Positions 11,679-27,257 of a DNA stretch of 64,000 bases are shown here, piece by piece. A model generated the notes under the pieces. The model saw only the letters and a program-made list of their open reading frames with translations. It searched no databases and was not told where the DNA came from. Origin of the DNA: a virus. Taxonomy: Duplodnaviria; Heunggongvirae; Uroviricota; Caudoviricetes. The DNA lies in IMG/VR virus record IMGVR_UViG_2795385758_000004, positions 22,292 to 86,291 of that record. One strand, given 5' to 3'. A program made the translations under genes and the position numbers. The stretch's first letter is position 1. The number at the start of each line of letters is the position of its first letter.

Positions 11679-11692
11679 AAGGGAAAACCATT

Positions 11693-12076
11693 ATGGCATG
11701 GGGCATTTCGGCCTACCTGGCGAACAAGATTCTCGATCACATCTGCCGCAACGTGGCCTACACACCACCGGCAACCGTGTACGCCAAGATGCACACCGGC
11801 GATCCCGGCGCGAACGGAACGGCTAACGCATCCTCGGTGGCCACCCGCTACGCCTGCGCGTTCAACGCGGCGGCAGCCGGGTCGATCAGCCAATCCAACA
11901 CCCCCGAGCACACTCTCGGCGCCATGGAAAACATTGCCGGGGTGTCATTCTGGGATCACCCAACGGCCGGGAACTTCTTGTGGTCATCGCAGGCCGCCGC
12001 CTCCAAGTCCGGTGCCAGCGGCGACATCATCCGCATCAACACCGACACCCTCGCACTCGGCCCGCTGGCGGCATGA
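11693..12076 (+). CDS. hypothetical protein (tail/lysis boundary)
   Basis: 127 aa ORF with a ribosome binding site. Position-equivalent to 26398..26760 in prophage B. Confidence 0.45.
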   Translation: MAWGISAYLANKILDHICRNVAYTPPATVYAKMHTGDPGANGTANASSVATRYACAFNAAAAGSISQSNTPEHTLGAMENIAGVSFWDHPTAGNFLWSSQAAASKSGASGDIIRINTDTLALGPLAA

Positions 12077-12219
12077 TGCGCCGCCAGCTGCTCATCTATC
12101 CGGCCCTCTACCTCGCCGTGTTCGCCGTCGCGTTCCGCCTCGGCTGGTGGGCATCGGACCAGCTTTCGTCCTACGCCCAAGAAATCGACCCACGTATCGA
12201 AAAGGAGTACACCCGATGA
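12073..12219 (+). CDS. small single-TM membrane protein preceding lysin A
   Basis: ATGATG start overlaps the upstream TGA, and its stop overlaps the lysA ATG (ATGA). 48 aa with hydrophobic core LLIYPALYLAVFAVAF. 47-aa homolog at 26252..26395. Confidence 0.4.
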   Translation: MMRRQLLIYPALYLAVFAVAFRLGWWASDQLSSYAQEIDPRIEKEYTR

Positions 12220-12872
12220 GCTTTCGCACTGTTAACGGCAACACCCATACCGAGGACGGCTGGCGGTGCTGCAATCGGGATGAATGCGACATCGTGCGCA
12301 TACCCGAGCTGTACCTCGTCGATACCGCACCGCTGCGCAAGGGCGCTCCGCTGACCATCCTCGGCGCCTGGCTGTACTGGTATGACCGCAACGTCGAAGA
12401 GATCACCTCCCCGGTCTGGGGGTGGTCTGCCACTAACGATGTCCTCGGCACTCCGGGTCGTAACGACGGCTCTAATCACTTGTCGGGTACCGCTGTTGAC
12501 GTGATGGCACCCAAGTACCCATGGCAGCAGTACACGATGAACGCCGCCACACAGGCCAAGGTCCGCAAGGGCCTGGCGCTGTTCGAGGGCTCGGTGTTTT
12601 GGGGACGTGACTGGTCGCGCCCCGACGAGATGCACTACCAGATGGCCTGGCCCGAGGGCGACAAACGCAATGACGCGTTCGCCGACAAGCTGCGCGCCGG
12701 ATACCTCGGCATCTACGCCCCCGCACAGCCTCCAGCGCCCGTGCAGAAACGTTTCCCGCAAGACCTTTCCGACCGCGAGCTGCTGGAGTACATCGCCGAA
12801 CAACTCGGACCAGGACACCCTGACTGGGCATCCAAGGGCATGACGCTGCGCGACAAGGTGTGGTCCAAGTGA
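12216..12872 (+). CDS. lysA: lysin A, single-domain peptidase M15-like endolysin
   Basis: ATG at 12216 with AAGGAG ribosome binding site. The longer upstream extension in the track overlaps the preceding gene in another frame and was not used. SNHLSGTAVD ... DEMHY matches the SxHxxGxAxD / DxxH LAS-peptidase signature. Sits immediately upstream of lysB. Confidence 0.7.
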   Translation: MSFRTVNGNTHTEDGWRCCNRDECDIVRIPELYLVDTAPLRKGAPLTILGAWLYWYDRNVEEITSPVWGWSATNDVLGTPGRNDGSNHLSGTAVDVMAPKYPWQQYTMNAATQAKVRKGLALFEGSVFWGRDWSRPDEMHYQMAWPEGDKRNDAFADKLRAGYLGIYAPAQPPAPVQKRFPQDLSDRELLEYIAEQLGPGHPDWASKGMTLRDKVWSK

Positions 12873-14044
12873 TCCGCATCGGCGACCGCAACCAAGCCGT
12901 CCGGCAGTGGCGCGCCGTGATGAACGACCGATACGGGCCGCTCTACACCCGGCTACTGGGACCGCTGCCCCGCGACACCGACGAATTCGGTCCCCGCGCC
13001 GCGTCCTGGGCAGCCGAGTACCAGCGCCGCACCGGCCAGATCCCCACCGGGCAGGTGTCCGATAACGACCTGCGCGCACTGGGCATCACGCCCCCGGCCC
13101 CGCCCGCCAACCGGCACCTCGGGCTGATGTTCCGGGGCACCGGAGGCATCATCGGCCAGGACTACGTATCTCGCGTCATGCAGGCCGTGGCCAACCTCGT
13201 TGAAGAGGTACACCCCGAATTCGCCGCAACCATGGGCGGGCTGCCGGTCGGCGCCGCGGGCGGCCCGGGCGACATATCGATGGCCAAGGCCGTCGACATC
13301 GCCGAGGCCGACGCACAACGCATCTTCACCGAGCGCTACCGCGCCAACCCCAACATCAAGGTCGTCATCGGCGGATACTCGGCCGGCGCGGTCGCGGGCG
13401 CCCGGTTCCGCGCGTGGCTGCTGGAGCACTACCCGAACAACTACCTGTGCTCATTCAGCATCGGCGATCCCACCCGCCCGTACGGTGGCAGCTACTACGG
13501 CGGTCCCGTCCTTGCTGGACAGGGCATTTCGTCGTGGCGGTTCGGCGATGTCAAGGACTACCGGCACTGCTGGCTCACCGACCCCGGCGACATGTACGGC
13601 AACATCCCCCTCGGTGTCGTCGGGGACATCATGGACGACTGTTTCGACATGGTGACCGCGTTTCAGCTCTCGGATCCGCTCGGGGCCGCTGGCGCCATCC
13701 TGCCGAAAATCCCCGAGATCGCCACCAAGGCCTTGGGTATCGAGCTGCCCGCCATATTCGGCGCCCTCTCTGGCGGCCCGGCCGGCATCGGAGCCATCGG
13801 CCTACCCATGGTGCTCGGCGGTCTACAGGGACTACTCGGCTGGGGCGATATCAACAAGCTCACCGGGCCCGCGGCCGCGGCGCAGGCCGCCTTGATCGCG
13901 CTGCGTTTCGTCACCACCAGCCCACCGACCGCCGCGCATATTCAATACGAATACCGCGAGGTCTGGCCCGGCCAAACCTATCTCGGCCTCGCCATCCAGC
14001 ACGTGCGCGACTGGGCCAGCCGCACCCCCGCCATAGCCGCGTAG
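12860..14044 (+). CDS. lysB: lysin B (mycolylarabinogalactan esterase) with N-terminal peptidoglycan-binding-like domain
   Basis: GGYSAGA matches the GxSxG serine esterase motif in a cutinase-like fold. GTG start at 12860, or alternatively GTG at 12869 overlapping the lysA TGA (GTGA). About 95% identical to 24436..25620. Confidence 0.85.
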   Translation: MVQVIRIGDRNQAVRQWRAVMNDRYGPLYTRLLGPLPRDTDEFGPRAASWAAEYQRRTGQIPTGQVSDNDLRALGITPPAPPANRHLGLMFRGTGGIIGQDYVSRVMQAVANLVEEVHPEFAATMGGLPVGAAGGPGDISMAKAVDIAEADAQRIFTERYRANPNIKVVIGGYSAGAVAGARFRAWLLEHYPNNYLCSFSIGDPTRPYGGSYYGGPVLAGQGISSWRFGDVKDYRHCWLTDPGDMYGNIPLGVVGDIMDDCFDMVTAFQLSDPLGAAGAILPKIPEIATKALGIELPAIFGALSGGPAGIGAIGLPMVLGGLQGLLGWGDINKLTGPAAAAQAALIALRFVTTSPPTAAHIQYEYREVWPGQTYLGLAIQHVRDWASRTPAIAA

Positions 14045-14177
14045 ATCAGTCCGCCCCCGCGCGAGGAGAGCGCGCTGGGACTCCCCACACCGTAGCGCTC
14101 CCTATCCATGGCGCCATCGAAAAAACTCCCCCTGAACTGCCCAAACCCTGTTATCCACAACCCCGAGAGGACCCGTC

Positions 14178-14405
14178 ATGCCCAACCCCATACCCCAAAA
14201 CGACACCACCCGCCTCATCGTCTACGCGGTCATGTTCATCGTCGTGTTCGCCGGAACCGTGGCCATGATCATCTCAGGGAAAATGGACGCCGCCAGCGGA
14301 CTGCAATGGGTGATTTCCATTGCCGGTCTCATCGGTACCGGCCTGCCGGGCCTCAAACTCGCCCAAGATATCCGCGGGAGCGGGCCGGACGGGTCGGCCG
14401 AGTGA
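14178..14405 (+). CDS. holin-like protein, two predicted TM helices
   Basis: 75 aa with GAGAGGA ribosome binding site. Two hydrophobic segments (LIVYAVMFIVVFAGTVAMII and WVISIAGLIGTGLPGL). Directly downstream of lysB. Confidence 0.55.
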   Translation: MPNPIPQNDTTRLIVYAVMFIVVFAGTVAMIISGKMDAASGLQWVISIAGLIGTGLPGLKLAQDIRGSGPDGSAE

Positions 14406-14653
14406 CCCCCGAGATAATCCAGGCGCTCGGCGTGGCCATCGCTGCGATTCTGACCGCGTGGCAAGCAATGACATCGCGGAAGGTTCGCGAACTCGAGGCC
14501 CGGATCAAGGCGGTCGAGAAGGAACGCGACCAGTTCCGCGACAAGCTCAGGGCCGCGGTGCGACACATCCGCGACTGGATGGGATGGGCCATGCACCACG
14601 CGCCCGGACAGGCCCCACCGCCGCTGCCGACAGAACTCGTCGACGAGGTGTAG
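14402..14653 (+). CDS. second lysis-cassette membrane protein (1 TM + coiled coil)
   Basis: GTG overlaps the upstream TGA (GTGA). One TM segment (ALGVAIAAILTAW) then a charged coiled-coil region. Homolog at 23753..24004. Confidence 0.5.
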   Translation: MTPEIIQALGVAIAAILTAWQAMTSRKVRELEARIKAVEKERDQFRDKLRAAVRHIRDWMGWAMHHAPGQAPPPLPTELVDEV

Positions 14654-14680
14654 CCCCCCGACTCGGAGTTAGACAGCTTG

Positions 14681-14727
14681 CCCAAAGGTGCCCCCGCTCA
14701 AACACACTGAGCGGGGGCACCTTTGGG
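14681..14727. terminator. bidirectional stem-loop terminator between convergent operons
   Basis: Perfect 20-bp inverted repeat cccaaaggtgcccccgctca / tgagcgggggcacctttggg around a 7-nt loop. Lies between the end of the + strand lysis genes and the end of the - strand toxin/immunity operon. Confidence 0.6.
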
Positions 14728-14733
14728 CGTTCG

Positions 14734-15006
14734 CTACTGCGAGTATCCGGGGCCGTAGGTGGTCGTCCCGGGTGGCACTATAGACTGCCCGATAGCCAGT
14801 ACTAGAATGAAGACCACAGATCCCGCCGCGGCGGCCAGCATCCCGATCGAGAAGGGGCGGGACTTCGGCGGTATGTAAGTTCCTATGCCGACTAGCACGA
14901 GAAGTACCGGCGTGAACATGTAGAGGTAGACCGCCAGGGAGAAAGCGGCAGACCCGGCCAGCAGACCGGCAATAGTCAGGTATCGGTTCATGTGATCGCC
15001 ACCCAA
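14734..15006 (-). CDS. small membrane protein (second immunity candidate)
   Basis: 90 aa with 2-3 hydrophobic helices. Lower GC than the surroundings. Last gene of the - strand toxin operon. Confidence 0.4.
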   Translation of the reverse strand: MGGDHMNRYLTIAGLLAGSAAFSLAVYLYMFTPVLLVLVGIGTYIPPKSRPFSIGMLAAAAGSVVFILVLAIGQSIVPPGTTTYGPGYSQ

Positions 15007-15269
15007 AATATGCCCAACAGGTACGTGATGGCACCCGGAAGCGGGGACAGCATTATCCCGCGTGCGTAGTCGCCCAATTGAGGGGACAGCGATTTCATCG
15101 CGAACCCGACAATCGGAAGAACGATGAACAGGCCGAGGATCGTCAAATAGATTGTGGTGCTTTCCAACCCGCCATGGGCCACGAAGAATGACGCGAGCGC
15201 GCCGTAGGCGACAGCAGACGCTATTGCTGCCGTGAAGACGACCCGCTTGTCACTACTGGTGTCATTCAT
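14988..15269 (-). CDS. membrane protein, candidate immunity protein for the adjacent toxin
   Basis: ATG lies 4 nt after the toxin stop. 93 aa with three hydrophobic segments. Lower GC than the surroundings. Confidence 0.45.
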   Translation of the reverse strand: MNDTSSDKRVVFTAAIASAVAYGALASFFVAHGGLESTTIYLTILGLFIVLPIVGFAMKSLSPQLGDYARGIMLSPLPGAITYLLGIFWVAIT

Positions 15270-15273
15270 CGAA

Positions 15274-16596
15274 TCACCCTACTGGGACTGTGGGAATGCG
15301 GTCAGTGGGTCCGAGCTGCGTTCCGGGGGTTGCGATCGGTATATCCCCTCGCGCGGCCGCAGTCGGTACGTGGAATTGGTTGACCAGTGACGCGTCGCCT
15401 TCCGAGTGCGACATGGGCAGTTGAAACAGCGGCCCGAATTCGTTGTGTCCCAGGCTTGGCATGTACTGAACCGCAGCCTGGTCGCCGTGGTAGATCTCCA
15501 GCGCAGGAAAGCTGGTGACCGTTCCGCCGACCTGAATGCCCGAATCGGTTGGCACTAGAGCTATATCGCCTTTCACGGTGTGAAATGACCCCTGGCCTGA
15601 TATCAGGCCGCCCGGTAGGAATCCATCCGCGGACTCGTATTGGATGTTGAGGGCATTACCCTTTTGCTTCACCGAGACATCAGGGTTGGTGCCTACTGCC
15701 ACTGCGCCAGTATCAGCATTGACCGACGGATTCTGGCGGTGGATCACCGCGCCGTTGTCGAAGTCTACGAGCATGCTCACGCGAGAGTGCTCGGGTGACG
15801 CATTCCGGTCGAAACCACGGTTATCGCCCCGGTCCTTGCCGAAGTTCCAGACCTTCTCACCGGGAATGAACGCGTTGATCTGCACCTGCCCTTTGCCCGG
15901 TTGCGGCTCAATCTTGGCAACCTTGATGTCGGACTCGACCCCCTTGTACTTAGGGTCATAGTTGTGCGCGTCCAGCATCGCCGCTGTGTGCCAGTCGGCG
16001 GGAGTTGTTGGCGCTCTTTTGAATACCTCTCGGAATGCAAACTCCTGGTTTTCGCGGGGCGACTTAATGCGGTCCAGCTCGCCGAGTATCCCGGTCATCG
16101 ACACCGGGAGTGACGATGGTTTCTCGTCACCGTCTGCGAGATTGACGGCGTGCGTCAGGGTGGCATCGGCGGCGTCACCGTCGGCCACGGCTCGCTTGAT
16201 CGCGTCGGTCAGCTCTGCCGCCTGCTGAGCCGCTTCCGGCTTGTCCGACAGCGGTTTTACCGCTCCGGTGGCGTAGTCGATCGAGAACTTGCCCCGTGCC
16301 TCGTTCTCGATCTTGCTCAGCTTGGCTTTGGCTGCCTCGAACTCGTCGGCCGCCTCGCGCATCTTGGCGGCCGCGGCCTGGCGCCCTTCGGAGTGGGTGC
16401 CGATGAGCTTGCCGAAGACTCCGAGCTCGGTGTCGGCGGTGGTGGCAGCGACCCCGGTCCAGTTGCCGACATGGGGCAGGTTGGGGAACGAGTTCTTGAT
16501 ATCGCTGAGCGAGGTCGCTTGCTTCTCCAGCGCCGCGGCGACATCGCGGATCATCTGGACGTCGACCTTCTTGAGATCCGCGGGGGTGAGTGACAT
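15274..16596 (-). CDS. polymorphic toxin with N-terminal WXG100-like (type VII secretion substrate) domain and an uncharacterised C-terminal domain
   Basis: 440 aa. N-terminal helical domain has NWTGVAAT, a W-x-G motif. Its start abuts the stop of the upstream WXG100 gene. The C-terminal roughly 250 aa matches nothing I recognise. Confidence 0.6.
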   Translation of the reverse strand: MSLTPADLKKVDVQMIRDVAAALEKQATSLSDIKNSFPNLPHVGNWTGVAATTADTELGVFGKLIGTHSEGRQAAAAKMREAADEFEAAKAKLSKIENEARGKFSIDYATGAVKPLSDKPEAAQQAAELTDAIKRAVADGDAADATLTHAVNLADGDEKPSSLPVSMTGILGELDRIKSPRENQEFAFREVFKRAPTTPADWHTAAMLDAHNYDPKYKGVESDIKVAKIEPQPGKGQVQINAFIPGEKVWNFGKDRGDNRGFDRNASPEHSRVSMLVDFDNGAVIHRQNPSVNADTGAVAVGTNPDVSVKQKGNALNIQYESADGFLPGGLISGQGSFHTVKGDIALVPTDSGIQVGGTVTSFPALEIYHGDQAAVQYMPSLGHNEFGPLFQLPMSHSEGDASLVNQFHVPTAAARGDIPIATPGTQLGPTDRIPTVPVG

Positions 16597-16917
16597 CTAC
16601 ATCACCGATGCGTCGGGATAGAGGCGAGTCTGAAAGATGTTGATCTTCGATTGCTCGTCGGTGGTCGTGAATGCATGCCCACAGGTGTCGAACGCGTCTC
16701 GATAGTGGGTCAGCTCGTTCTCGATATGCCGGGATTGCGCCGCCCAATCGGTCATCTTTGCCCGCAGCGCCGCAGCCGACGAGCCAACCCACCCGGTAGA
16801 CGCAGCCTCGATCGCTGCGTTGGTAGCCGCGTGGGTCTCGATGTGCTCAGCGCGGTGCATGTCCATGCGATCGGCTGACATCCGTAGACGCTCGGGCTCG
16901 ACGCTCATTGCGTCCAT
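16597..16917 (-). CDS. WXG100 (ESAT-6/CFP-10-like) family protein
   Basis: 106 aa helical protein carrying TGWVGSSAAAL, a W-x-G motif, at the expected position. Confidence 0.7.
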   Translation of the reverse strand: MDAMSVEPERLRMSADRMDMHRAEHIETHAATNAAIEAASTGWVGSSAAALRAKMTDWAAQSRHIENELTHYRDAFDTCGHAFTTTDEQSKINIFQTRLYPDASVM

Positions 16918-16965
16918 GTCGTACCCCCTCGGTGGTAGCTGAGTGGACTATACGATAGGCCGGTT

Positions 16966-17208
16966 CTAGCGGCCACGGGTTGCCAGCTCGGGGCATTCAG
17001 ACATGACTTCCCGATCGACGGCAGCTTTCGCGGCGGTGTAGTTGGGATAGATCGGCTGATCCTCTGAGAACGTCAGGGCTACGTCGACGGGCCCCATGCC
17101 AGGGTATTTGCGCAGCATGTCGCACACAATTCCAGTTGGCCGAGGGCTGGCGTGCGCAATTAGTGCGCACCCGAGGGTGATCATCACGGCCAGCATGAGC
17201 GCCCTCAT
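16966..17208 (-). CDS. small secreted protein (signal peptide)
   Basis: N-terminus MRALMLAVMITLGCALIAHA is signal-peptide like. 80 aa. Confidence 0.45.
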   Translation of the reverse strand: MRALMLAVMITLGCALIAHASPRPTGIVCDMLRKYPGMGPVDVALTFSEDQPIYPNYTAAKAAVDREVMSECPELATRGR

Positions 17209-17618
17209 TCGATGTGCCCCGGCTCGCCGTCAGGGATGGCGTCGGCCCAGACGATGTAGCGTTCCCGCTGGGTAACCGTGGTCGGGTCAGAGTAAGACGT
17301 GGATAGCTCGCAGCCATCGGCGTGGTAGCGGCCGTAGTCGTCGATCCGCCCCTGGCACTTAGTCCTATTGCCACCGATATGGGTGAAAGTGCGGTATCTC
17401 ACCCAAGCAATGTTGCCGCTGCCACTTACTTCCACCGGGCTGTCACATAGCTGACGGATGCTGGGATTCAGCCCGAGAATAGCGTCGCGCTGGCAGTGGA
17501 AGATCTCCGGTAGTCCCATATCGGAAGGGTCGCCGGGCGCCGCATTGGCGGGCGTGGCGAGCGCGATAGCAGCCAATGGAACCATGAGCGGCAATGCCCA
17601 CTTTCCGATTCGCATCAT
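17205..17618 (-). CDS. secreted Cys-containing protein
   Basis: Signal peptide MMRIGKWALPLMVPLAAIALATPANA. 137 aa with 4 Cys. ATGA overlap with the downstream gene. Confidence 0.45.
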   Translation of the reverse strand: MMRIGKWALPLMVPLAAIALATPANAAPGDPSDMGLPEIFHCQRDAILGLNPSIRQLCDSPVEVSGSGNIAWVRYRTFTHIGGNRTKCQGRIDDYGRYHADGCELSTSYSDPTTVTQRERYIVWADAIPDGEPGHIE

Positions 17619-17787
17619 GCGCGGATCGTACTTCGATCGGCTAGTTTCCGGCCAGGAATGCCACCAGCCGATCTACCTTGCCGATTCCGTCGAAATGACG
17701 CGGCGCGCGTGAAGTGTCCCGGCCGCCAGCCCACAGCACTACGCCCGTCTGGCTGTAGGCGACGCTGGCATAGGCGGGAGTGCCGGG

Positions 17788-17822
17788 CAGTCGATACACA
17801 CACTCACGGTGTGTATCGACTG
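17788..17822. repeat. perfect 14-bp inverted repeat hairpin 3' of integrase A
   Basis: cagtcgatacacac actcacg gtgtgtatcgactg. Located 87 bp beyond the integrase A stop. Possible terminator or protein-binding site. Confidence 0.5.
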
Positions 17823-17908
17823 CCCTGTCACCGTCATTGGAAATCCAGCCGTGCTGACGTGCAGCGGCGTCGACCTCGCGCTGGCCGGTCATCGCGCGAA
17901 CGGTTCGA

Positions 17909-18808
17909 TCATGTTGATTGCCTCTCGATTGCGCTGGCTGAACGCCGGCGGGTCGCTGCCTTCTTGGTTCGAGGTGAAGCGCACAGCCGTGACGCCAGTG
18001 CGTCAACGCCAACCGCACCGCGCCGCGTGTTGTAGCCGAGGTAAACCATTGTGGTAGCAAGGCTTTGGTGCCCAAGGGCTTCTTGGATATACCGGATATC
18101 GACGCCAAGCTCGTTGAGCGCGGTTGCGAAGCGGTGCCGCAACGTGTGCAGCGTGTACGGCAGCTTGAGGCCCGCCAAGAAGTCCGAAGACACCACCGAC
18201 ACGTAGTTCGGAGTCACCTGCCCTCCAAGCGGACGGCGGAACATCGGTCCAGCCTGGCTGAGCTGAATGGCCAGCCGTGCCTGTACCTCCGGCGGGACAC
18301 GAACGATGCGTTGCTTTCCACCCTTGCCATGCACGGTCAGGAACGCGCCGCCATTCTCATCGGGGCGAAAGTCGGTGCGAGACATCTGCGCGATCTCCCC
18401 AGCGCGCAGACCGCAGTATCCGGCCAGTAGTAGCCACGCGTGCATGTCTGAGCCGGCGGGGGCGGCCAGCAATGCCAGGCGTAGGTGATCCTCGGGAATG
18501 GGACGCGGCATCCGGCGTTTGAGCTTGGGCTGTACGAGGCTGGCGGTTGGGTCCTCGTCGATGAGCCTGCCGCGGTGAGCCCATCTGTAGAACGCGCAGA
18601 CGTGCGAGGTGTAGGTCTGAATACTAGAAGGGCACACTCGAAGCGACCGTTGCCATGCTTCGAGCTGCGCGGGGGTTGCATCTAGGAGGGGGGTATCACC
18701 GAGCCAGCGCGCGAGCCGGTCTATCTGGCCGAGCCTGTGCTCGATCGTCTTCGGGGTCATGTTGCGCAGACGCAGGTGTGCTGTGAACTCGCTGAGGGTG
18801 TTTTCCAT
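17909..18808 (-). CDS. int: tyrosine recombinase / phage integrase (Xer-like, 299 aa)
   Basis: N-terminal SAM-like core-binding domain. C-terminal catalytic motifs HTLRHRFAT and ALGHQSLATTMVYL carry the R..H..R..Y signature. About 75-80% identical to integrase B. Confidence 0.85.
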   Translation of the reverse strand: MENTLSEFTAHLRLRNMTPKTIEHRLGQIDRLARWLGDTPLLDATPAQLEAWQRSLRVCPSSIQTYTSHVCAFYRWAHRGRLIDEDPTASLVQPKLKRRMPRPIPEDHLRLALLAAPAGSDMHAWLLLAGYCGLRAGEIAQMSRTDFRPDENGGAFLTVHGKGGKQRIVRVPPEVQARLAIQLSQAGPMFRRPLGGQVTPNYVSVVSSDFLAGLKLPYTLHTLRHRFATALNELGVDIRYIQEALGHQSLATTMVYLGYNTRRGAVGVDALASRLCASPRTKKAATRRRSASAIERQST

Positions 18809-18846
18809 GGCAAATGAATAACGGCTACTTACTCGCGACCGCGGGG

Positions 18847-19012
18847 TTGTTGCAGGTCAGATGCTTTCCTGAGCGGAAAACGTGACCCGAACTCGCGCGA
18901 CGCCCGATGCGCTTATACGGTTCATACTCACGAGTATGAACCGTATAAGTCCGCGTTCCGGCGCGCCAGCTCAGGTCACGGTTTCCGCTCGGGGAAGCAA
19001 CTGACCTGCAAC
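18847..19012. repeat. large imperfect palindrome between divergent integrase genes with perfect 18-bp core inverted repeat (candidate shared att core / recombinase site)
   Basis: Outer arms ctgacctgcaacaa are identical on both sides. Inner arms are about 85% identical. The core cttatacggttcatactc ac gagtatgaaccgtataag (18912..18949) is a perfect inverted repeat. Confidence 0.55.
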
Positions 19013-19056
19013 AAGTCCACCCGTTCGGTTTCCTAGCAAAAGGACGGGCTGTACTT

Positions 19057-19947
19057 ATGTCACCTGTGAATAATGACACTGTCGTCTCAGAGTTTGCTCG
19101 TTATCTGAAGCTGAAGAACTTCACAGCTAAAACGATCGAGCACCGCTTGGGGCAGATTGCTAGATTAGCTAGATGGCTTGGGGAAACATCTTTGCTGGAG
19201 GCCACCCCGGAGCAGCTTGAGGCCTGGCAGGGTTCGTTGCGGGTGTGCCCGTCTAGCATCCAGACCTACACGTCGCATGTTTGCACCTTCTATCAGTGGG
19301 CCTACCGATGTGGGCGCACGAGCGAATACGTCGCAAAAGACTTGGTGCAACCGAAGATTCAGCGCCGTATGGCCCGGCCCATCCCCGAGGACCACTTGCG
19401 GATCGCGCTGACCGGCGCGCCTGTCGGGACTGACATCCATGCATGGCTGCTATTGGCCGGATACTGCGGTCTGCGCGCTGGGGAGATCGCGCAGATGTCA
19501 CGCAACGACTTTCGCCCCGATGAAGGCGGCGGCGCCTTCCTGACCGTGCACGGTAAGGGAGGGAAGCAACGCATCGTCCGAGTTGCCCCCGAGGTCATGC
19601 AACGTCTGGCAATTCAGCTGAGCCGACCCGGCACCATGTTCTGCCGTCCCCGCGGCGGGCCAGTCACACCCAACTACGTCTCGGTCGTGGGTGCGGAATT
19701 CCTAACCAATCTCGGGCTCCCGTACACGCTGCACACCCTGCGACACAGGTTCGCGACCGTGCTCGCCGACGAAGGCGCGGACCTCCGCGATATCCAGGAA
19801 TTGATGGGGCACGAGAGCCTGGCGACCACCATGCGGTACCTCGCTTACTCGACCCGACGTGGAGCGGCGTCCGTCGACTCGCTCGCGTCGCACTTGTGCC
19901 CCTCGCGGTCGTCGGCATCGAGAATGGAACAGCGCAGTCACAAGTAG
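19057..19947 (+). CDS. int: tyrosine recombinase / phage integrase (Xer-like, 296 aa)
   Basis: Homolog of integrase A with the same catalytic motifs (HTLRHRFAT, LMGHESLATTMRYL). Transcribed divergently from integrase A. Confidence 0.85.
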   Translation: MSPVNNDTVVSEFARYLKLKNFTAKTIEHRLGQIARLARWLGETSLLEATPEQLEAWQGSLRVCPSSIQTYTSHVCTFYQWAYRCGRTSEYVAKDLVQPKIQRRMARPIPEDHLRIALTGAPVGTDIHAWLLLAGYCGLRAGEIAQMSRNDFRPDEGGGAFLTVHGKGGKQRIVRVAPEVMQRLAIQLSRPGTMFCRPRGGPVTPNYVSVVGAEFLTNLGLPYTLHTLRHRFATVLADEGADLRDIQELMGHESLATTMRYLAYSTRRGAASVDSLASHLCPSRSSASRMEQRSHK

Positions 19948-20028
19948 GTGTCACATCTAGGAGGTCGGCCAGCGGGCACGAGGGGATGCCCATATGGTCT
20001 CCGAATGCCCGCTCGCCGGTCCCCCTGG

Positions 20029-20304
20029 ATGAATGAACGCGCCCAGTTGCTCGTGCGCTATCTCGCTGAGCAGCACGCCCTGAACATGACCGAGGCCATG
20101 GCGCGAGAGCGTATTTCGGCGAAAGTCGACCTGACCGCCGAGCTGATGGGCATCAGCCGGCAGTCGGCCAAGGCCTACGTCGATGAGGACTACGTGCGCC
20201 GGATGGCCGATAGCTTCGCGGCAGCGGTCCGAGACTTACAAGCTCGGTCACCGCGCCGTGGACTGAGAGCGGTGCCCGACCAGTCTGGAATCGCGACGGA
20301 ATAG
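20029..20304 (+). CDS. small hypothetical protein (possible regulator)
   Basis: ATG at 20029 follows the integrase. 91 aa, helical. No recognisable motif. Confidence 0.35.
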   Translation: MNERAQLLVRYLAEQHALNMTEAMARERISAKVDLTAELMGISRQSAKAYVDEDYVRRMADSFAAAVRDLQARSPRRGLRAVPDQSGIATE

Positions 20305-20401
20305 CAATAACCCTGCGCATGCCGCCGAAACGTGCAGGTCGGATGGGTATCGCTTCGCACTCCTATTGCGGTGGCAAACTCGGCGGCGATACCATCCGGC
20401 A

Positions 20402-20713
20402 ATGAGTGGAGGGGTCCTCGGGGTTTCGCCAGAAGAGTTGCAGCGGGTTTCGCGATTGGTCACCGCGACCGCAGGCGGTTTGGCGACGGAGCTGGATGCC
20501 CTCGACGCCGAGGTGTCGCGGTTTGTCGGCTCCGGTTGGTCTGGTGGGTCGGCGAGCGCGTTCACCACGCGGTGGTTCCAGTGGTACGAGGGCGCCAAGC
20601 TGGTACACCAGGGCCTTGCGCAGATGGGCAGCTTGTTGGCGAGCACCGGGGATGCGTTCGTGGGCCAGGATGCGGCCACCGCCGCCAACGTCAACGCCGC
20701 TGACGGAATGTAG
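20402..20713 (+). CDS. WXG100 family protein (EsxB/CFP-10-like)
   Basis: 103 aa carrying SGWSGGSASAF, a W-x-G motif. First gene of an Esx-like pair. Confidence 0.65.
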   Translation: MSGGVLGVSPEELQRVSRLVTATAGGLATELDALDAEVSRFVGSGWSGGSASAFTTRWFQWYEGAKLVHQGLAQMGSLLASTGDAFVGQDAATAANVNAADGM

Positions 20714-20722
20714 GGGGAGAAG

Positions 20723-21013
20723 ATGTCAGGTGAATTCGGCGTTGTGCCCGACGAGCTCATGCGGATCATCGAACGCATGGCAGAGGTTGAGCAGCGAGCC
20801 GAGGCGTCGATAGCGGCCATGGACACCGAGGTTCACAACCTGCACGCCACCTTCACAGGTGAAGCTGCCACGGCCCACACGCAGGCGCACGAGAAGTGGG
20901 CCAAGGGCGCCGAGCAGATGCGCGAAGCGCTCAAGGGCCTACGTAGCGCGAGCCACGCCGCGCACGGCAATTACACAGGCGCCGCTGCCAAGAACATGCA
21001 GAACTGGGCATAG
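20723..21013 (+). CDS. WXG100 family protein (EsxA/ESAT-6-like partner)
   Basis: 96 aa helical hairpin protein. Strong ribosome binding site GGGGGAGAAG. Carries KWAKG. Immediately downstream of the EsxB-like gene. Confidence 0.6.
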   Translation: MSGEFGVVPDELMRIIERMAEVEQRAEASIAAMDTEVHNLHATFTGEAATAHTQAHEKWAKGAEQMREALKGLRSASHAAHGNYTGAAAKNMQNWA

Positions 21014-21017
21014 CGCG

Positions 21018-22670
21018 ATGGCACCCCCGATTCATGTCGACCCGGTTGCCCTCGATGGCGCCGGTAGAACGGTCTCCAGCTCGGTGGGCGGGTGGGGCTC
21101 TGCGCTGTCGGCATTGCAGTCGGCGCTGTCGAGTTCGGCCGGTATGGGTGGGGATGACCCCGCCGGGATCGTGTTCGCGCGATCGTATGACTCGTCAGCC
21201 AAGGAACTCCTTGAGGCGATGGTGGACGTGTCCAACGGTGCCGGGCGGGCCGCTGACGGCATCCGGGCCTCGGCGACCAACTATTCGCGTGCCGAGGTGG
21301 CATCCAACATCGACGGCAAGGGCGGCGACCCACTGCCCGCCGCCTCACCCACTCCCGCGGTGAAGGCCGGGACCCCACCGTCTGCGGTGGGTAGCGATGT
21401 TGGCGACCCACCCGGTTGGTTCCTGGTGGAGCCGTTCATCGGAATGATTTGGCCCAATGGTGATTCGGCGAAGCTGCGCGCCGCTGGCGCCGCGTGGACG
21501 GCTGCCGGTGCGGCATTCACCGCTCAGCAGGCCGGACTAGCGGGGGCGCAGGCAACCGCGCAGGCCCAGCAGATCCCCGAAGGTCCCAAGATCGATAGCG
21601 CGTTCAAGACGATTGACGGTGCTGTCGGCGAGGTCGGCGGCATGTGCAGCACCATGGGCACCAAGCTCAACGACTACGCGGCCAAGATCGATACGGCGCA
21701 CGCATCGATACTGGACCTGTTGGCCCGCTTGGTAAATCCGCTGACCGGTGCCAAACAGGTCGTGGACTGGATTACCGGCGAAGACGACGACGAAATAAAG
21801 AAAATCGCCGCCGACATCCGCAACATCGTCAACCAGTTCAAGTCGGAAGTGCAGTCGCTCGCGCTGCTGCTGGCGCCGATCATCCAGGGCGCATCGATGG
21901 TCATCGACACCCTAAAGTCGTTGGTACAGATGCAGGTTGAGCTTTTCGGAAACGAGATATACAACACCGTGGCCCCGGTAGTGAACGCCACTGCATCCTT
22001 GGGGCAGGCCATGATCGACAACCCCGGCCAGACAATCCAGATGGCAGCTGGAGTCGGCATGATGGCGGTCGGCTACGACATGATGGCTGCGGCGGGCGTC
22101 GGTGAGGTCTTCACCGGTGGGGCCGCGACACCGGTCGCGGCGCCTGTCGCTGTTGCCGGGGCGGGCTTACTCGCTGGTGGCGCGGTCGTCGCCATACCGC
22201 CAGCCCTCGACCTCTCGAAAGAGGCTGCGGTCAACGGCGTGACGGTGATGGAGGCCCGGACTGGACGACCCGGCGAGGGCATCAACCGTGGCGACGACCG
22301 CGATTCCATCGGCACATTCACAGGCCGAGGCGGCACAGCCCGAGGATACGGTCGCCAACCAGAGGCAGAGGGTATCGATCGTTATCGGCGCGCTAACCCG
22401 GACGAATGGGTGAGCACTGAGCGTCGTAAGGCCAAGGTCGATGGGGTCGAGAATGGCCGCTACTACGATGGTTTGGCGCAGAAGTCAGACGGCACTTACA
22501 AAGGTATTGAGGTCAAATCCGGTGATGCCACACGCAATGCAGAGCAGCGAGCGTTCGACTCGGCCGTAACTCCAGAGAATCCGGCCTACGTTACGATCAC
22601 AAACAGGAGCGGGGAAGTCGAGACGGTGAAAGTCACTGAGGTAGAGGTAATTAAGGTGGCGGGCGAATGA
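21018..22670 (+). CDS. polymorphic toxin: N-terminal Esx/WXG-like secretion domain, Ala/Gly-rich linker, C-terminal putative PD-(D/E)xK-like nuclease domain
   Basis: ATG at 21018 lies 4 nt after the Esx gene stop. The track's upstream extension overlaps the Esx gene and was not used. The last roughly 120 aa are AT-richer and include SDGTYKGIEVKSGD, a D...ExK-like motif. The stop overlaps the start of the next gene. Confidence 0.6.
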   Translation: MAPPIHVDPVALDGAGRTVSSSVGGWGSALSALQSALSSSAGMGGDDPAGIVFARSYDSSAKELLEAMVDVSNGAGRAADGIRASATNYSRAEVASNIDGKGGDPLPAASPTPAVKAGTPPSAVGSDVGDPPGWFLVEPFIGMIWPNGDSAKLRAAGAAWTAAGAAFTAQQAGLAGAQATAQAQQIPEGPKIDSAFKTIDGAVGEVGGMCSTMGTKLNDYAAKIDTAHASILDLLARLVNPLTGAKQVVDWITGEDDDEIKKIAADIRNIVNQFKSEVQSLALLLAPIIQGASMVIDTLKSLVQMQVELFGNEIYNTVAPVVNATASLGQAMIDNPGQTIQMAAGVGMMAVGYDMMAAAGVGEVFTGGAATPVAAPVAVAGAGLLAGGAVVAIPPALDLSKEAAVNGVTVMEARTGRPGEGINRGDDRDSIGTFTGRGGTARGYGRQPEAEGIDRYRRANPDEWVSTERRKAKVDGVENGRYYDGLAQKSDGTYKGIEVKSGDATRNAEQRAFDSAVTPENPAYVTITNRSGEVETVKVTEVEVIKVAGE

Positions 22671-23167
22671 GTCTTGAGCGCAATGGTTTTCAGATGCATA
22701 CATACACTACCGACAAAGATTTCATTATGTGGATGGGCGCTGAGCCAGGGAAGGCGCACCGGCAGATCGAAATAAATATCAACTCGATCGGCGAAGATCG
22801 GGATGGTGTCGCAGACGTGGCGTTCTCGATCTATAAGGTCCCCGATGGCACTGAGTACGACGAGTTCCCATACCCTCATGAGTGGATTCAGACTTGCGGG
22901 GCCACCGCCGAGCGCCTGACCGTCGAAATCCGCCGGAAAGAGTCCGATGGCGTTCGGCGTATGTACACCATCGGACGGCCTTCTGCGGCAAATGAATCCG
23001 AGCAGTCAGAGACGGTCTACAACGGCGACAGTGAGTACCTGGTACGACCGTCAGAGGTCCTATCCGCCGCTGAAGCTATCGAGCTGTTCCAGCACTACTA
23101 CAACCACCTGGACGTTGCGCCGGGCTGGCACTTGCGCGAGCAACCCGAATTCGCCGACGCCGGGTAG
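22667..23167 (+). CDS. candidate immunity protein for the upstream toxin
   Basis: ATGA start/stop overlap with the toxin. 166 aa, acidic. Noticeably lower GC than the surroundings. Confidence 0.5.
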   Translation: MSLERNGFQMHTYTTDKDFIMWMGAEPGKAHRQIEININSIGEDRDGVADVAFSIYKVPDGTEYDEFPYPHEWIQTCGATAERLTVEIRRKESDGVRRMYTIGRPSAANESEQSETVYNGDSEYLVRPSEVLSAAEAIELFQHYYNHLDVAPGWHLREQPEFADAG

Positions 23168-23241
23168 GGGGCATGCCCGCCGCGATGTGAGCACTCCTGT
23201 AACCACTTCTGACCTGGGCGTGATCTTGTAATCTGCCGTCC

Positions 23242-23670
23242 ATGGCGAGAGAGATGGGCACCCCGGCGAAAGCGTTGTGGGTGTGTCTGGGGGTATTTGT
23301 CGGGCTGCTGGCGTTCATGGCGGCGTGCGCAATAGGGCTGTCGGGCCAATCCGGAAACGTTGGTGTGAGCGTTGAAGTGAGGCAAAAGTACGCGATCGAG
23401 ACATGCCAGTCCGCTCTCATGAAGCGCATGCGTGACCCTGAGAGTGCGAAGTTCGCCGATGAGGTGGCCCGTGAAGGCGTGGCGCATGGAGGTGGTCGCG
23501 ATCCCGAGTTGGACTACTCGCCCGACCGCGGTGATATTTACTTTACGGTGACGGGCAATGTCAACGCCAAGAACGCGTTTGGTGGTTACACGGGGATGCG
23601 TCCCTACACCTGCGATGCGGTGGTGGACAGAAACGGCACAACGCAAAGCCGGGCCCGCGTGCTGGATTAG
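23242..23670 (+). CDS. membrane-anchored / lipoprotein-like secreted protein
   Basis: N-terminal hydrophobic segment ending FMAAC looks like a lipobox. 142 aa. Last + strand gene before the convergent terminator. Confidence 0.4.
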   Translation: MAREMGTPAKALWVCLGVFVGLLAFMAACAIGLSGQSGNVGVSVEVRQKYAIETCQSALMKRMRDPESAKFADEVAREGVAHGGGRDPELDYSPDRGDIYFTVTGNVNAKNAFGGYTGMRPYTCDAVVDRNGTTQSRARVLD

Positions 23671-23690
23671 TGCACTAGAAACACGAATAG

Positions 23691-23730
23691 CGCCCCTCAC
23701 CGGGTCGGGGTGAGGGGCGTTATTTCGTTG
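23691..23730. terminator. stem-loop terminator (bidirectional) between convergent operons
   Basis: cgcccctcacc gggtcgg ggtgaggggcg followed by a T-rich tract. Confidence 0.55.
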
Positions 23731-23752
23731 GCCTGCAATCAGTGTGGGCTCT

Positions 23753-24004
23753 CTACACCTCGTCGACCAGCTCTGCTGGTAGTTCGGGTGTGGGCGTTTC
23801 GGGTCTGTGTTGTCGCGCCCAGCCCATCCATTCGCGGATGTGTCGGACGGCTGCGCGGAGTTTGTCACGATATTGGTCGCGCTGGCCTACGACGATGGCT
23901 AGTTGAGCTTCCAGGTCGCGGACTTTGCGCGAGGTGCGGGCTTGCCAGGCGCCCAGGATGGCGACGATGGCGCCGCCGACGGCTTGGATCTGGTCGGGGC
24001 TCAC
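23753..24004 (-). CDS. lysis-cassette membrane protein (1 TM + coiled coil), homolog of 14402..14653
   Basis: GTG overlaps the upstream TGA (GTGA). Contains AVGGAIVAILGAWQARTSRKVRDLEAQ. About 75% identical to the prophage A protein. Confidence 0.5.
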   Translation of the reverse strand: MSPDQIQAVGGAIVAILGAWQARTSRKVRDLEAQLAIVVGQRDQYRDKLRAAVRHIREWMGWARQHRPETPTPELPAELVDEV

Positions 24005-24297
24005 CGGCCGCTGCCCGCCACGAGCTTGAACAGGCTGGACGGTACGACCGCCTTGGTGGCCGAGGCGGTACCGGATCGGCCCAGCTTGATCGATGCCGCA
24101 GAGAAGATGAGCGATACCGCCAGCGTCCCGGCGCCGACATTGATACCGCTCTGCCAATCGATCTCGGTCAGGGCTGCGTTCACCGCGGCGTCGGCCAGGT
24201 TGGCGCCGACGATGAAGCCACCCGCGAACGTCTTGATAGCGCGCTCGGCAGCGTCAACGGCGGCGTCCTTGAGCCAGGGCGGGATGGTGATGTGCAT
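24001..24297 (-). CDS. holin-like membrane protein, unrelated in sequence to the holin of prophage A
   Basis: ATG at 24297 has a GAGAGGA ribosome binding site at the same spacing as in prophage A. 98 aa with hydrophobic glycine-zipper segments (GGFIVGANLADAAV, GAGTLAVSLIFSAA). Confidence 0.5.
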   Translation of the reverse strand: MHITIPPWLKDAAVDAAERAIKTFAGGFIVGANLADAAVNAALTEIDWQSGINVGAGTLAVSLIFSAASIKLGRSGTASATKAVVPSSLFKLVAGSGR

Positions 24298-24435
24298 GAC
24301 GGTCCTCTCGGCGGTTGGGTTGTGGATAACTGCGTTTGGGCAGTTCAGGGGGAGTTTTTTCGATGGCGCCATGGATAGGGAACGCTACGGTGTGGGGAGT
24401 CCCTGCGCGCTCTCCTCGCGCGGGGGCGGACTGAT

Positions 24436-25620
24436 CTACGCGGCTATGGCGGGGGTGCGGCTGGCCCAGTCGCGCACGTGCTGGATGGCGAGGCCGAGAT
24501 AGGTTTGGCCGGGCCAGACCTCGCGGTATTCGTATTGAATATGCGCGGCGGTCGGTGGGCTGGTGGTGACGAAACGCAGCGCGATCAAGGCGGCCTGCGC
24601 CGCGGCCGCGGGCCCGGTGAGCTTGTTGATATCGCCCCAGCCGAGTAGTCCCTGTAGACCGCCGAGCACCATGGGTAGGCCGAGCGCGGCGATACCGTTG
24701 GGGCCACCAGTGAGCGCGCCGAATATGGCGGGCAGCTCGACACCCAATGCCTTGGCGGCGATTTCGGGGATTTTGGGCAGGATGGCACCAGCGGCCCCGA
24801 GTGGGTCAGTGATCTGGAATGCGGTCACCATGTCGAAACAGTCGTCCATGATGTCCCCGACCACCCCGAGGGGGATGTTGCCGTACATGTCGCCAGGGTC
24901 GGTGAGCCAGCAGTGCCGGTAGTCGGTGACATCGCCGAACCGCCACGATGAAATACCCTGTCCCGCCAGGATTGGGCCGCCGTAGTAGCTGCCACCGTGG
25001 GGCCGGGTGGGGTCACCAAAGCTGAATGAGCACAGGTAGTTGTCCGGGTAGTGCTCGGCCAGCCACGCGCGGAACCGGGCGCCCGCGACCGCGCCGGCCG
25101 AGTATCCGCCGATGACAACCTTGATGTTGGGGTTGGCGCGGTAGCGCTCGGCGAAGATGCGTTGTGCGTCGGCCACGGCGATGTCGACGGCCTTGGCCAT
25201 CGAAATGTCGTTGATGCTGCCCGCGGCGCCGACCGGGAGTCCGCCCATGGTTGCGGCGAATTCGGGGTGCACTTCCTCAACGAGGTTGGCCACGGCCTGC
25301 ATGACGCGAGATACGTAGTCTTGGCCGATGACTCCTCCGGTGCCCCGGAACATTAGGCCCAGGTGGCGGTTGGCGGGCGGGGCCGGGGGCGCAATGCCCA
25401 GCGCGCGTAGGTCATCATCGGACACCTGCCCGGTGGGGATCTGGCCGGTGCGGCGCTGATATTCGGCGGCCCACAGGGCAGCGCGCGGCCCGAACTCGTC
25501 GGTGTCGCGGGGCAGCGGCCCCAGCAGCCGGGTGTACAGCGGCCCAAACCAGTCGTTCATCACGGCCCGCCACTGACGGACCGTTTCATTGCAGTCTCCG
25601 ATGCGGATCACTTGGACCAC
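24436..25620 (-). CDS. lysB: lysin B (mycolylarabinogalactan esterase)
   Basis: 394 aa with GGYSAGA, matching the GxSxG motif. About 95% identical to 12860..14044. Confidence 0.85.
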   Translation of the reverse strand: MVQVIRIGDCNETVRQWRAVMNDWFGPLYTRLLGPLPRDTDEFGPRAALWAAEYQRRTGQIPTGQVSDDDLRALGIAPPAPPANRHLGLMFRGTGGVIGQDYVSRVMQAVANLVEEVHPEFAATMGGLPVGAAGSINDISMAKAVDIAVADAQRIFAERYRANPNIKVVIGGYSAGAVAGARFRAWLAEHYPDNYLCSFSFGDPTRPHGGSYYGGPILAGQGISSWRFGDVTDYRHCWLTDPGDMYGNIPLGVVGDIMDDCFDMVTAFQITDPLGAAGAILPKIPEIAAKALGVELPAIFGALTGGPNGIAALGLPMVLGGLQGLLGWGDINKLTGPAAAAQAALIALRFVTTSPPTAAHIQYEYREVWPGQTYLGLAIQHVRDWASRTPAIAA

Positions 25621-26255
25621 ACCTTGTCGCGCAGCGTCATACCCTTCGATGCCCAGTCAGGATGTCCTGGCCCGAGTTGTTCGGCGATGTATTCAAGTAG
25701 CTTGCGGTCGGGAGCTTCTTGGACGAATTGCTGGTGTAGCACAATAGGATCGACCGCCGGGGGCTGCGCGGGCGCGTAGATGCCGAGGTATCCGGCGCGC
25801 AGCTTGGCGGCGAACGCGTCATTGCGCTTGTCGCCCTCGGGCCAGGCCATCTGGTAGTGCATCTCGTCGGGGCGCGACCAGTCGCGGCCCCAGAACACCG
25901 AGCCCTCGAACAGCGCCAGGCCCTTGCGGACCTTGGCCTGCGTGGCGGCATCCATCGTGTACCGCTGCCAGGGGTACTTGGGTGCCATCACGTCAACAGC
26001 GGTGCCTGCCAGGTGATTACTGTTGGCGACATCGTTTGTGGCCGACCAGCCCCACACGGGCGAGGTGATCTCTTCGACGTTGCGGTCATACCAGTACAGC
26101 CAGGCGCCCAGGATGGTCAGCGGGGCGCCCTTGCGCAGCGGTGCGGTATCGACGAGGTACAGCTCGTCGATGCGTACGATGTCGCATTCGTCCCGGTTGC
26201 ACATACGCCAACCGTTCTCGGACACCGTATTGCCGTATGCGGTGCGGAAACTCAT
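25608..26255 (-). CDS. lysA: lysin A, peptidase M15-like single-domain endolysin
   Basis: ATG at 26255 with AAAGGAAG ribosome binding site. SNHLAGTAVD ... DEMHY. About 90% identical to 12216..12872. Confidence 0.7.
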   Translation of the reverse strand: MSFRTAYGNTVSENGWRMCNRDECDIVRIDELYLVDTAPLRKGAPLTILGAWLYWYDRNVEEITSPVWGWSATNDVANSNHLAGTAVDVMAPKYPWQRYTMDAATQAKVRKGLALFEGSVFWGRDWSRPDEMHYQMAWPEGDKRNDAFAAKLRAGYLGIYAPAQPPAVDPIVLHQQFVQEAPDRKLLEYIAEQLGPGHPDWASKGMTLRDKVWSK

Positions 26256-26395
26256 CGGGTGTACTTCCTTTCGATGCGGGGGTCGATCTCTTGGGCGTAG
26301 GAGGACAGGCGGTCGGATGCCCACCAGCCCAGCCGGAATGAGATGGCGGCAAGTGCGGAGTAGAAGGCCGAGTGCTTGAGAAGCTGGCGGGCCAT
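26252..26395 (-). CDS. small single-TM membrane protein preceding lysin A
   Basis: 47 aa. MARQLLKHSAFYSALAAISFRLGWWASD is the homolog of 12073..12219. ATGA overlap with lysA. Confidence 0.4.
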   Translation of the reverse strand: MARQLLKHSAFYSALAAISFRLGWWASDRLSSYAQEIDPRIERKYTR

Positions 26396-26397
26396 GA

Positions 26398-26760: not shown

Positions 26761-26779
26761 GCGGGGGCCTTTCTGTTGG

Positions 26780-27235: not shown

Positions 27236-27257
27236 GTTTGGGTGATCCCTCCTGCGG

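Follow-up and report, generated by a model that had tools for sequence, protein, structure and literature searches.

Two prophages joined head to head at the Mycobacterium abscessus attB-13 site, one of them probably inserted backwards

How do two homologous integrase genes, transcribed away from each other, come to flank a large palindrome in phage DNA? The question is raised by a 64,000-nucleotide stretch of viral DNA (positions 22,292 to 86,291 of the IMG/VR virus record IMGVR_UViG_2795385758_000004; hereafter the window), in which two Xer-like tyrosine integrase genes, int1 and int2, lie back to back. A sequence-only reading of this DNA had proposed either a fusion of two attP-derived arms, inverted relative to each other, at a single shared core, as when a second phage integrates in reverse beside a resident relative, or a dif-like or invertible site served by both recombinases. 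Our analysis favors the former. The window probably contains the inner seam at which two prophages meet head to head in the attB-13 site of M. abscessus, a phage of cluster MabC having been inserted backwards next to a phage of cluster MabN.

Nearly end to end, the window is M. abscessus prophage DNA. Positions 1-18941 are collinear with positions 23701-42641 of the MabN prophage prophi62-3 (MW584177) at 99.98% identity, and positions 18920-49885 match positions 49664-18699 of the MabC prophage prophiCCUG48898T-1 (OQ417974), on the opposite strand, at 99.3% identity. Beyond 49885 the MabC part is still collinear with prophiCCUG48898T-1 but mosaic (overall 99.3-99.9% identity), and positions 54023-64000 are 99.93% identical to a locus from a public genome, L033. 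The MabN part runs as in its phage record, from attL to attR, with its repressor end about 23.7 kb to the left of the window; the MabC repressor end lies about 5 kb past the right edge. The two matches abut and share a 22-bp core alone (18920-18941), such that, within the window, two different prophages are parted only by a hybrid att junction to which each contributes one arm. Both clusters integrate at attB-13 and use integration-dependent immunity (PMC8092301, PMC9934374). The core is this attB-13 site, used by both clusters, and not a mere piece of host tRNA or terminator, as the sequence-only reading had allowed it might be. A plasmid origin was considered and rejected on the lack of any PLSDB match to the window.

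Aligning the two halves of the surrounding 2 kb reveals that this entire region is an inverted duplication about 18930/18931. The palindrome at its center is 168 bp long rather than the 164 bp first estimated, while its perfect 18-bp core repeat and its AC spacer stand as originally described, as does the symmetry of the integrase genes: the start codons have their midpoint at 18932.5, and the palindrome is centered on 18930.5. Its outer arms, 56 nt each, are 86% complementary. Its single-stranded form has a folding energy of -75.4 kcal/mol, compared with -30.6 +/- 3.3 for shuffled sequences (z = -13.6; 0 of 200 shuffles as good), which is far beyond chance. The innermost part, junction Y, reads GGTTCATACTC (18919-18929), AC (18930-18931), GAGTATGAACC (18932-18942), or two P half-sites: that of phage 1, a center, and the reverse complement of that of phage 2. 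The palindrome consists of two attP arms, each from the integrase-proximal side, that meet at the att core; P' arms had been suggested before. By the geometry of the sites, a correctly aligned tyrosine recombinase exchange would join a left arm to a right arm, so the P-P junction in Y would require an exchange in the wrong, antiparallel orientation. The junction string CATACTCACGAGTATG is absent from both parental attR sites, and the parents share words of at most about 6 nt in the inverted sense. An 84-aa open reading frame (18825-19079, minus strand) begins within int2 on its antisense strand, crosses the junction and ends in the MabN repressor tail; we take it for an incidental product of the fusion, and related contigs have no called gene at this place.

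What the arms encode is explained by the immunity system of these phages. In integration-dependent immunity the repressor gene (rep) is transcribed together with int and contains attP, and integration strips the repressor of its C-terminal tail (PMC3694055). Here rep and int would form one leftward operon, and removal of the tail on integration would make the repressor active. The peptide encoded by the left arm is the tail of the full-length 133-aa repressor P0003 of our protein collection, and MW584177 is annotated at 42525-42626 as the 3' part of an immunity repressor; the right arm encodes the tail of the full-length 129-aa repressors P0039 and P0040. Both tails are co-directional with the adjoining integrase gene, their stop codons lying 16-20 nt upstream of its start (18825 to 18808; 19036 to 19057). 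The identical outer 14-mer of the arms, ctgacctgcaacaa, translates as L-T-C-N, and where the arms diverge the codons are those for RIG in one tail and SAF in the other. The block-wise pattern of the arms is thus coding conservation between homologous viral-form repressor tails. Protein-binding sites, which the sequence-only reading had placed in the arms for the integrase or a regulator, are not needed to account for the blocks and were set aside. Prophage forms of the repressors end in TVLTHE, with a TAA stop that comes from the B-type half-site GAGTAAGAAC; the P half-site has TAT instead. In both repressors the core is read in one and the same frame (TVLTHE/YEPYK). The two proteins are 41% identical, with the likeness mainly in the tail, and the two phages are probably heteroimmune. 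That the tail acts as a destabilizing or degradation signal is presumed for MabC and MabN, whose tails lack ssrA-like tags (PMC8092301).

Could attB-13 itself allow a phage to enter backwards? We reconstructed the att sites from deposited prophage ends and from attR, attL and empty attB loci of public genomes. The empty loci were drawn from the matches listed in a degenerate-core scan of the genome collection and belong to other Mycobacteroides species; a representative empty site of M. abscessus was not among the matches listed in that scan. Empty attB-13 reads AC-AGTTCTTACTC-GT-GAGTAAGAACT-CG, a perfect 11-2-11 palindrome save for the central GT. Normal attR and attP read GGTTCATACTC-GT-GAGTAAGAACT, and attL forms a palindrome that is perfect as 13-2-13. 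B, B' and P' share the half-site AGTTCTTACTC, and the P half-site is GGTTCATACTC. In every normal site (39 attR, 25 attL and 7 empty attB) the center is GT when read toward the host gene MAB_3947 (adh_short, 295 aa), and this GT makes up the first two bases of that gene's called GTG start. Judging from these sites, only the central dinucleotide can set orientation within the attB-13 palindrome, and because it is the sole asymmetry in 24 bp, the wrong alignment would mismatch just two base pairs. The comparison with empty sites that the sequence-only reading had called for also places the palindrome in its host context: ACAGTTCTTACTC-GT-GAGTAAGAACT is conserved in Mycobacteroides between two divergent adh_short genes, at all seven empty loci, and gives the impression of a host element, an operator or one for translation initiation, that phages have come to target.

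These features suggest a route to the seam. A MabN phage would have been resident first, in the normal orientation, when a heteroimmune MabC phage superinfected the cell. The small Xer-like integrases would act on simple core sites, and the MabC attP would recombine with the resident attR (P1-GT-B') in antiparallel alignment, with the two central base pairs mismatched. The products would be Y (P1-AC-rcP2, rc marking a reverse complement), as in the window, and a junction X' (rcP2'-GT-B') beside MAB_3947. The AC of Y and the GT of X' are complementary, as would be expected from a heteroduplex overlap whose products segregate at replication; in the flipped event, one product would carry G.T/T.G mispairs and the other A.C/C.A mispairs. 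Because B' has the same GAGTAAGAAC half-site as B, the flipped repressor would still meet TAA and be truncated, and the resident repressor would be left untouched. That an integrase catalyzed the exchange, that events ran in this order, that MabC was the phage flipped here, and the selective logic considered below are what we infer from the sites and junctions.

This route makes a prediction for DNA outside the window. With MabC lying backwards between the resident P arm and B', its repressor end must adjoin MAB_3947, and with GT kept toward MAB_3947 in X', the flipped repressor must end in TRE rather than THE. Such hypothetical repressors were looked up in the protein collection after the prediction was made, and TRE-ending repressors were present on three MabC repressor backgrounds. 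In 8 of 8 contigs read, the TRE repressor overlaps the start of MAB_3947 by 8 nt, and where the contig extends, this gene is followed by Glyoxalase and PHO4, the normal right flank of attB-13; the THE form, on 24 of 24 contigs, lies at a normal attL. The X' sequence is GCAC-AGTTCTTACTC-GT-GAGTAAGAACT-CGTTCGG, or rcP2'-GT-B', and is seen in five loci of related strains, the outer junctions lying outside the window itself. Two flipped ends (L288 and L289) are 99.92-99.93% identical to the normally oriented L033, and they differ from it at 3 positions over about 4 kb, among which the two bases of the flipped center must be counted. One assembly, GCA_900138995.1, holds both outer junctions, with the MabN repressor (rep1) at a normal attL beside adh_short-276 (L241) and a flipped MabC-type repressor at MAB_3947 (L287). 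The repressors point outward at both ends, and therefore the integrase ends must face each other inside, as in the window. Who the two phages are, how Y is built, the palindromic form of attB, the X' junctions and the TRE endings together bear out the first-named proposal of the sequence-only reading, a second phage reversed across one shared core.

The overlap at flipped ends has a side to it that concerns the host gene. At positions 10284-10291 of L287, and likewise in L288, L290 and L291, the repressor stop (CGT GAG TAA) and the MAB_3947 start (GTG AGT AA) share the 8 nt. In flipped lysogens MAB_3947 comes next after the repressor gene, on the same strand, so that transcription from the repressor promoter could run into it, perhaps with translational coupling.

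Head-to-head joining has occurred with another partner as well. A second pair combines the same MabC integrase with a MabN-like phage that has a 304-aa integrase and a different P arm, and its junction palindrome is 11-2-11. It is found in FSIP01000001.1 (a 2.46-Mb contig), FVNY01000001.1 and similar contigs (4 of 24 int2 contigs; at least 3 assemblies), and in a 91,844-bp IMG/VR provirus (IMGVR_UViG_2802429052_000001; L155, L306) whose far-end MabC repressor ends in THE (L170). IMG/VR proviruses are cut at gene edges and hence come without host flanks. The 304-aa integrase of the partner (L233 1-9750, in FSIP01000001.1) has no match of at least 85% in deposited phage records, and the partner's Tox-REase-5 toxin cassette is 96-97% identical to the MabC prophage cassette, another instance of toxin-cassette exchange. 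Direct tandems of MabC type also occur at attB-13, in L032 (FVAN01000001.1, 2893-15344) and L302 (FVDG01000002.1, 1630-2930), where an attP-like junction, P2-GT-P2', separates int2 from a full-length 129-aa repressor. The downstream copy in L032 has lost an internal part, a methyltransferase gene being joined to a 147-aa integrase fragment beside a normal attR. Full-length 129-aa repressors were found on 11+9 chromosomal contigs. Assemblies tend to break just past the junction or in the shared RecE/RecT region (L022 1-190, the starts of L288 and L289, the contig end of L241), and head-to-head pairs are probably under-counted in public assemblies.

Why should phages be kept in this arrangement? 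A direct tandem formed via attR would fuse the incoming repressor to the resident's tail, which is the viral, unstable form, and one formed via attL would re-tag the resident repressor. Because a direct tandem would leave one repressor in viral form, we suggest that the inverted arrangement is the one to persist for heteroimmune pairs. A broader version of this idea, which we put forward tentatively and rate at somewhat less than even, is that attB-13 serves as a two-way docking site at which head-to-head stacking is selected. Backward insertion into a resident attR would leave both repressors of a same-frame heteroimmune pair truncated and active. With centers of GT in attL, AC in Y and GT in X', the outer sites would still be matched for excision of a 92-kb composite, and the opposite polarity of the two sites around each prophage would favor inversion over excision of one phage, locking the pair together.

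The integrases are of a kind suited to simple sites. The two divergent open reading frames of 299 and 296 aa are as first described, each with a Phage_integrase domain and an N-terminal SAM-like domain and no other domain in Pfam, including any for arm binding; their amino acid identity is 70% (209/297), below the 75-80% first given, and in the conserved part about 75% of their nucleotides agree. Both are intact, with readable motifs (GLRAGE, KGGKQR, HTLRHRF, GH(Q/E)SLATTM(V/R)Y). Against the XerC equivalog model TIGR02224 they score 113-115 bits (cut-off 335), against the XerD equivalog model TIGR02225 83-93 bits (cut-off 330), and the score of int1 against the XerA model is also far below cut-off; on these scores we consider them not to be XerC/XerD orthologues. 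Integrases of integration-dependent immunity systems carry out integration and excision without a recombination directionality factor (RDF), and arm-type sites are treated as a later addition to such switches (PMC3694055). With int1 and its toxin as queries, int1 is single and adjoins MAB_3947 in 46 of 47 contigs, and int2 does so in 20 of the 24 contigs read. The exception in the int1 set, L228 (ERR5414122_564, 2236-5823), has a window-type WXG100 gene and 440-aa toxin cassette and a CDGP gene behind a different, 303-aa integrase; this integrase sits at another attB, where its neighbors are TetR, acetyltransferase and AHSA1 genes, and illustrates how integrase modules are swapped.

The features of the window, and the empty attB-13 loci, are collected in Table 1. 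Each prophage carries a toxin cargo. The MabC cargo as annotated begins with gene 70 of OQ417974 (window 20402-20713), for which the longest open reading frame starts at 20366. The lysis cassettes of the two phages form a large inverted repeat around the junction, and enclose about 10 kb with both toxin cassettes, both integrases and the junction itself. Homologous recombination between them would invert this block, exchanging integrase and toxin modules between the phages.

Table 1. Features of the window (window positions), with the empty attB-13 loci of other Mycobacteroides genomes (locus positions) in the last rows
Feature	Position	Strand	Remarks
MabN prophage, right-hand 18.9 kb	1..18941	+	tail, lysis, toxin cassette, integrase, P arm
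MabC prophage, ~45 kb	18920..64000	-	reversed relative to MabN partner
Lysis cassettes	12081..14195 (MabN); 24281-26390 (MabC)	inverted	88% identical
Immunity gene of 440-aa toxin	14988-15269		MW584177 annotation
WXG100 protein and 440-aa polymorphic toxin, MabN cargo	15274..16917	-	annotation of MW584177 genes 62-64
int1, Xer-like tyrosine integrase, 299 aa, MabN	17909..18808	-	PF00589 7e-18; tyrosine integrase in MW584177
MabN repressor gene, 3' remnant, left arm	18825..18929	-	encodes EYEPYKRIGRRASSGHVFRSGKHLTCNNPAVASK, then stop
Imperfect palindrome, 168 bp	18847..19014		outer arms 18847-18902 / 18959-19014
Junction Y, perfect 18-2-18 palindrome	18912..18949		arms 18912-18929 / 18932-18949, spacer AC
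MabC repressor gene, 3' remnant, right arm	18932..19036	+	encodes EYEPYKSAFRRASSGHGFRSGKQLTCNKSTRSVS, then stop
int2, Xer-like tyrosine integrase, 296 aa, MabC	19057..19947	+	PF00589 3e-21; tyrosine integrase in OQ417974
Two WXG100 proteins, polymorphic toxin, immunity protein, MabC cargo	20402..23167	+	annotation of OQ417974 genes 67-70
550-aa polymorphic toxin, MabC	21018-22670	+	OQ417974 annotation
Empty attB-13, L082	5109-5130		M. chelonae
Empty attB-13, L113	5494-5515		M. franklinii
Empty attB-13, L105, L119, L122, L143, L149

The same end structure could have been reached by another history, which we consider unlikely for the window, though the sequence of Y alone cannot order events. 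A phage might have integrated backwards into an empty palindromic attB, followed by a second phage entering the resulting B-O-rcP pseudo-attB; this would need two mismatched exchanges to arrive at the observed centers (GT in attL1, AC in Y, GT in X'), and a flipped single lysogen was not seen among the loci with outer flank, in which integrases abut only MAB_3947 or another integrase, and THE-type repressors abut only the adh_short gene on the attL side. A direct tandem might have formed before the integrase inverted one of its prophages, and direct tandems at attB-13 do exist, as in L032, L302 and the contigs with full-length 129-aa repressors. Or MabN might have been the phage that was flipped, as its counterpart seems to be in the second pair, in which the MabC repressor ends in THE. 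Against this last variant, the TRE form of the MabN repressor (rep1-TRE), the mark of a flipped MabN phage of this immunity type, is absent from the protein collection, and the TRE form of the MabC repressor (rep2-TRE) is present there on the background of the window's phage. We consider it very improbable that a large chromosomal inversion, by integrase or by homologous recombination, brought together prophages from different loci such as attB-12 and attB-13. MabC phages do use both of these sites, whose cores are related (PMC8092301), and the two prophages share inverted homologous segments. An inversion would still need a wrong-alignment event, however, given that correct integrase exchange yields P-B' or P-P' and never P-P; homologous recombination would not set the crossover exactly at the center of the core dyad, and the outer junctions of GCA_900138995.1 show ordinary attB-13 flanks and ordinary synteny (L241, L287).

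A dedicated dif-like or invertible site with a cooperating recombinase pair, the other suggestion of the sequence-only reading, fits a symmetric core between two divergent Xer-like genes, and since Y and X' are opposite in central polarity, an integrase could in principle invert the flipped prophage. Yet each integrase belongs to a separate prophage and is normally single at attR beside MAB_3947, the scores against the XerC and XerD equivalogs are about a third of the cut-offs, the arms are remnants of repressor coding sequence, and no contig held an inverted isoform of a defined segment; we give this idea hardly any credence. Closest to negligible, in our estimate, is an assembly artifact, either a chimeric join of two attR contigs or a fold-back. 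Short-read assemblies are indeed prone to break at palindromes and repeated prophage modules, and L022 ends 58 nt past the core, with L288 and L289 ending in the shared RecE region. The arms come from different phages, however, which a fold-back could not produce; CATACTCACGAGTATG occurs in neither parental attR; the same architecture recurs in independent assemblies, among them the 2.46-Mb contig; and the reciprocal X' junction exists too.

Several points weigh against our account of a MabC phage inserted backwards beside a resident MabN phage. None of the contigs read holds Y and X' together, and the MabN+MabC junction was not present in any of the contigs, up to 24 per query, that were read for the two integrases, the two toxins and an early protein. 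For this strain, the choice of the flipped phage and the collinearity of the host flanks are judged from related assemblies. Because its MabC repressor ends in THE, the second pair implies a normal MabC and a flipped partner with the 304-aa integrase, and toward the far end of that partner in the IMG/VR provirus the DnaQ, MabN-repressor and DUF7239 profiles had no match. The account also supposes that the integrase tolerates heterology at the two central base pairs, and its selective argument assumes that the repressor tails are degradation signals.

No component of this arrangement is new: the phage clusters and attB-13 are known, as are the split repressor, the Xer-like integrases and the toxin cargo. 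Prophages of MabC or MabN that occur singly at attB-13 (Dedrick et al. 2021, PMC8092301; Broussard et al. 2013, via PMC3694055) agree with the window in phages and integrases, in core and host site (upstream of MAB_3947), in the split repressor and in the WXG100 toxin cargo. These described prophages are single and in one orientation, whereas the window holds an inverted pair, and PMC8092301 makes no mention of a head-to-head pair, a P-P junction, an rcP'-B' junction or a TRE variant. The nearest parallel is the tandem of prophiT36-2a (MabN) and prophiT36-2b (MabB) at attB-2 in M. abscessus T36, T38 and T48, likewise two integration-dependent-immunity prophages at one attB (PMC9934374). It is thought to have formed by integrase-mediated recombination of an incoming attP with a resident attL or attR, and its authors (Amarh et al. 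2023) discuss how the repressor frame limits workable arrangements (PMC9934374). That tandem, the only one described in M. abscessus, is direct, head to tail, at a tRNA-Thr site (PMC9934374), and works, as its authors explain, because its two repressors cross the core in different frames; the window's pair, in contrast, has a non-tRNA palindromic attB, repressors in the same frame, and an inverted, integrase-to-integrase order with a P-P junction. Neither the inverted integrase-to-integrase double prophage, nor the palindromicity of attB-13, the TRE signature or a frame-based reason for inversion, was found in PMC8092301, PMC9934374 or full-text literature searches. The head-to-head arrangement seems rare and undescribed, a new arrangement of known elements.

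Comparable site logic is familiar from simple-site recombinases. The serine integrases of Bxb1 and phiC31, Cre-lox and FLP-FRT all have symmetric half-sites and a short asymmetric center that sets orientation, and a center that is symmetric, or in which mismatch is tolerated, allows recombination in either orientation. What differs here is that natural prophage tyrosine integrases are involved, that the GT center is asymmetric, and that 2-bp heterology would have to be accommodated. The likeness to Xer/dif and to integrative mobile elements exploiting Xer (IMEX) lies in small two-domain recombinases with no arm-binding domain, half-sites of about 11 bp, a short center and the lack of an RDF. 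In contrast to Xer/dif, however, the window's integrases are phage-encoded and score as non-XerC/XerD, their site is at the promoter and start codon of a host gene, and they serve lysogeny rather than dimer resolution.

Overall, the window reveals no new kind of system, and its interest lies in what known parts appear able to do. A practical point for prophage calling is that what is taken for one 92-kb 'provirus' can be a pair of phages, and that inverted shared modules cause assemblies to break. Sequence signatures by which such lysogens may be recognized in M. abscessus genomes are a TRE repressor overlapping the MAB_3947 start, the 24-mer GGTTCATACTCRYGAGTATGAACC for Y, and the string GCACAGTTCTTACTCGTGAGTAAGAACTCG for X'. 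For a clinical pathogen at which phage therapy is aimed, the finding is relevant to forecasting how inducible prophages with ESX-secreted polymorphic toxins will be, and it suggests a rule for how integration-dependent-immunity phages may co-occupy one attB. With TRE repressors on at least three backgrounds and a second phage pair, it appears that a natural tyrosine integrase system with a near-symmetric attB can integrate a phage backwards, and can do so recurrently.

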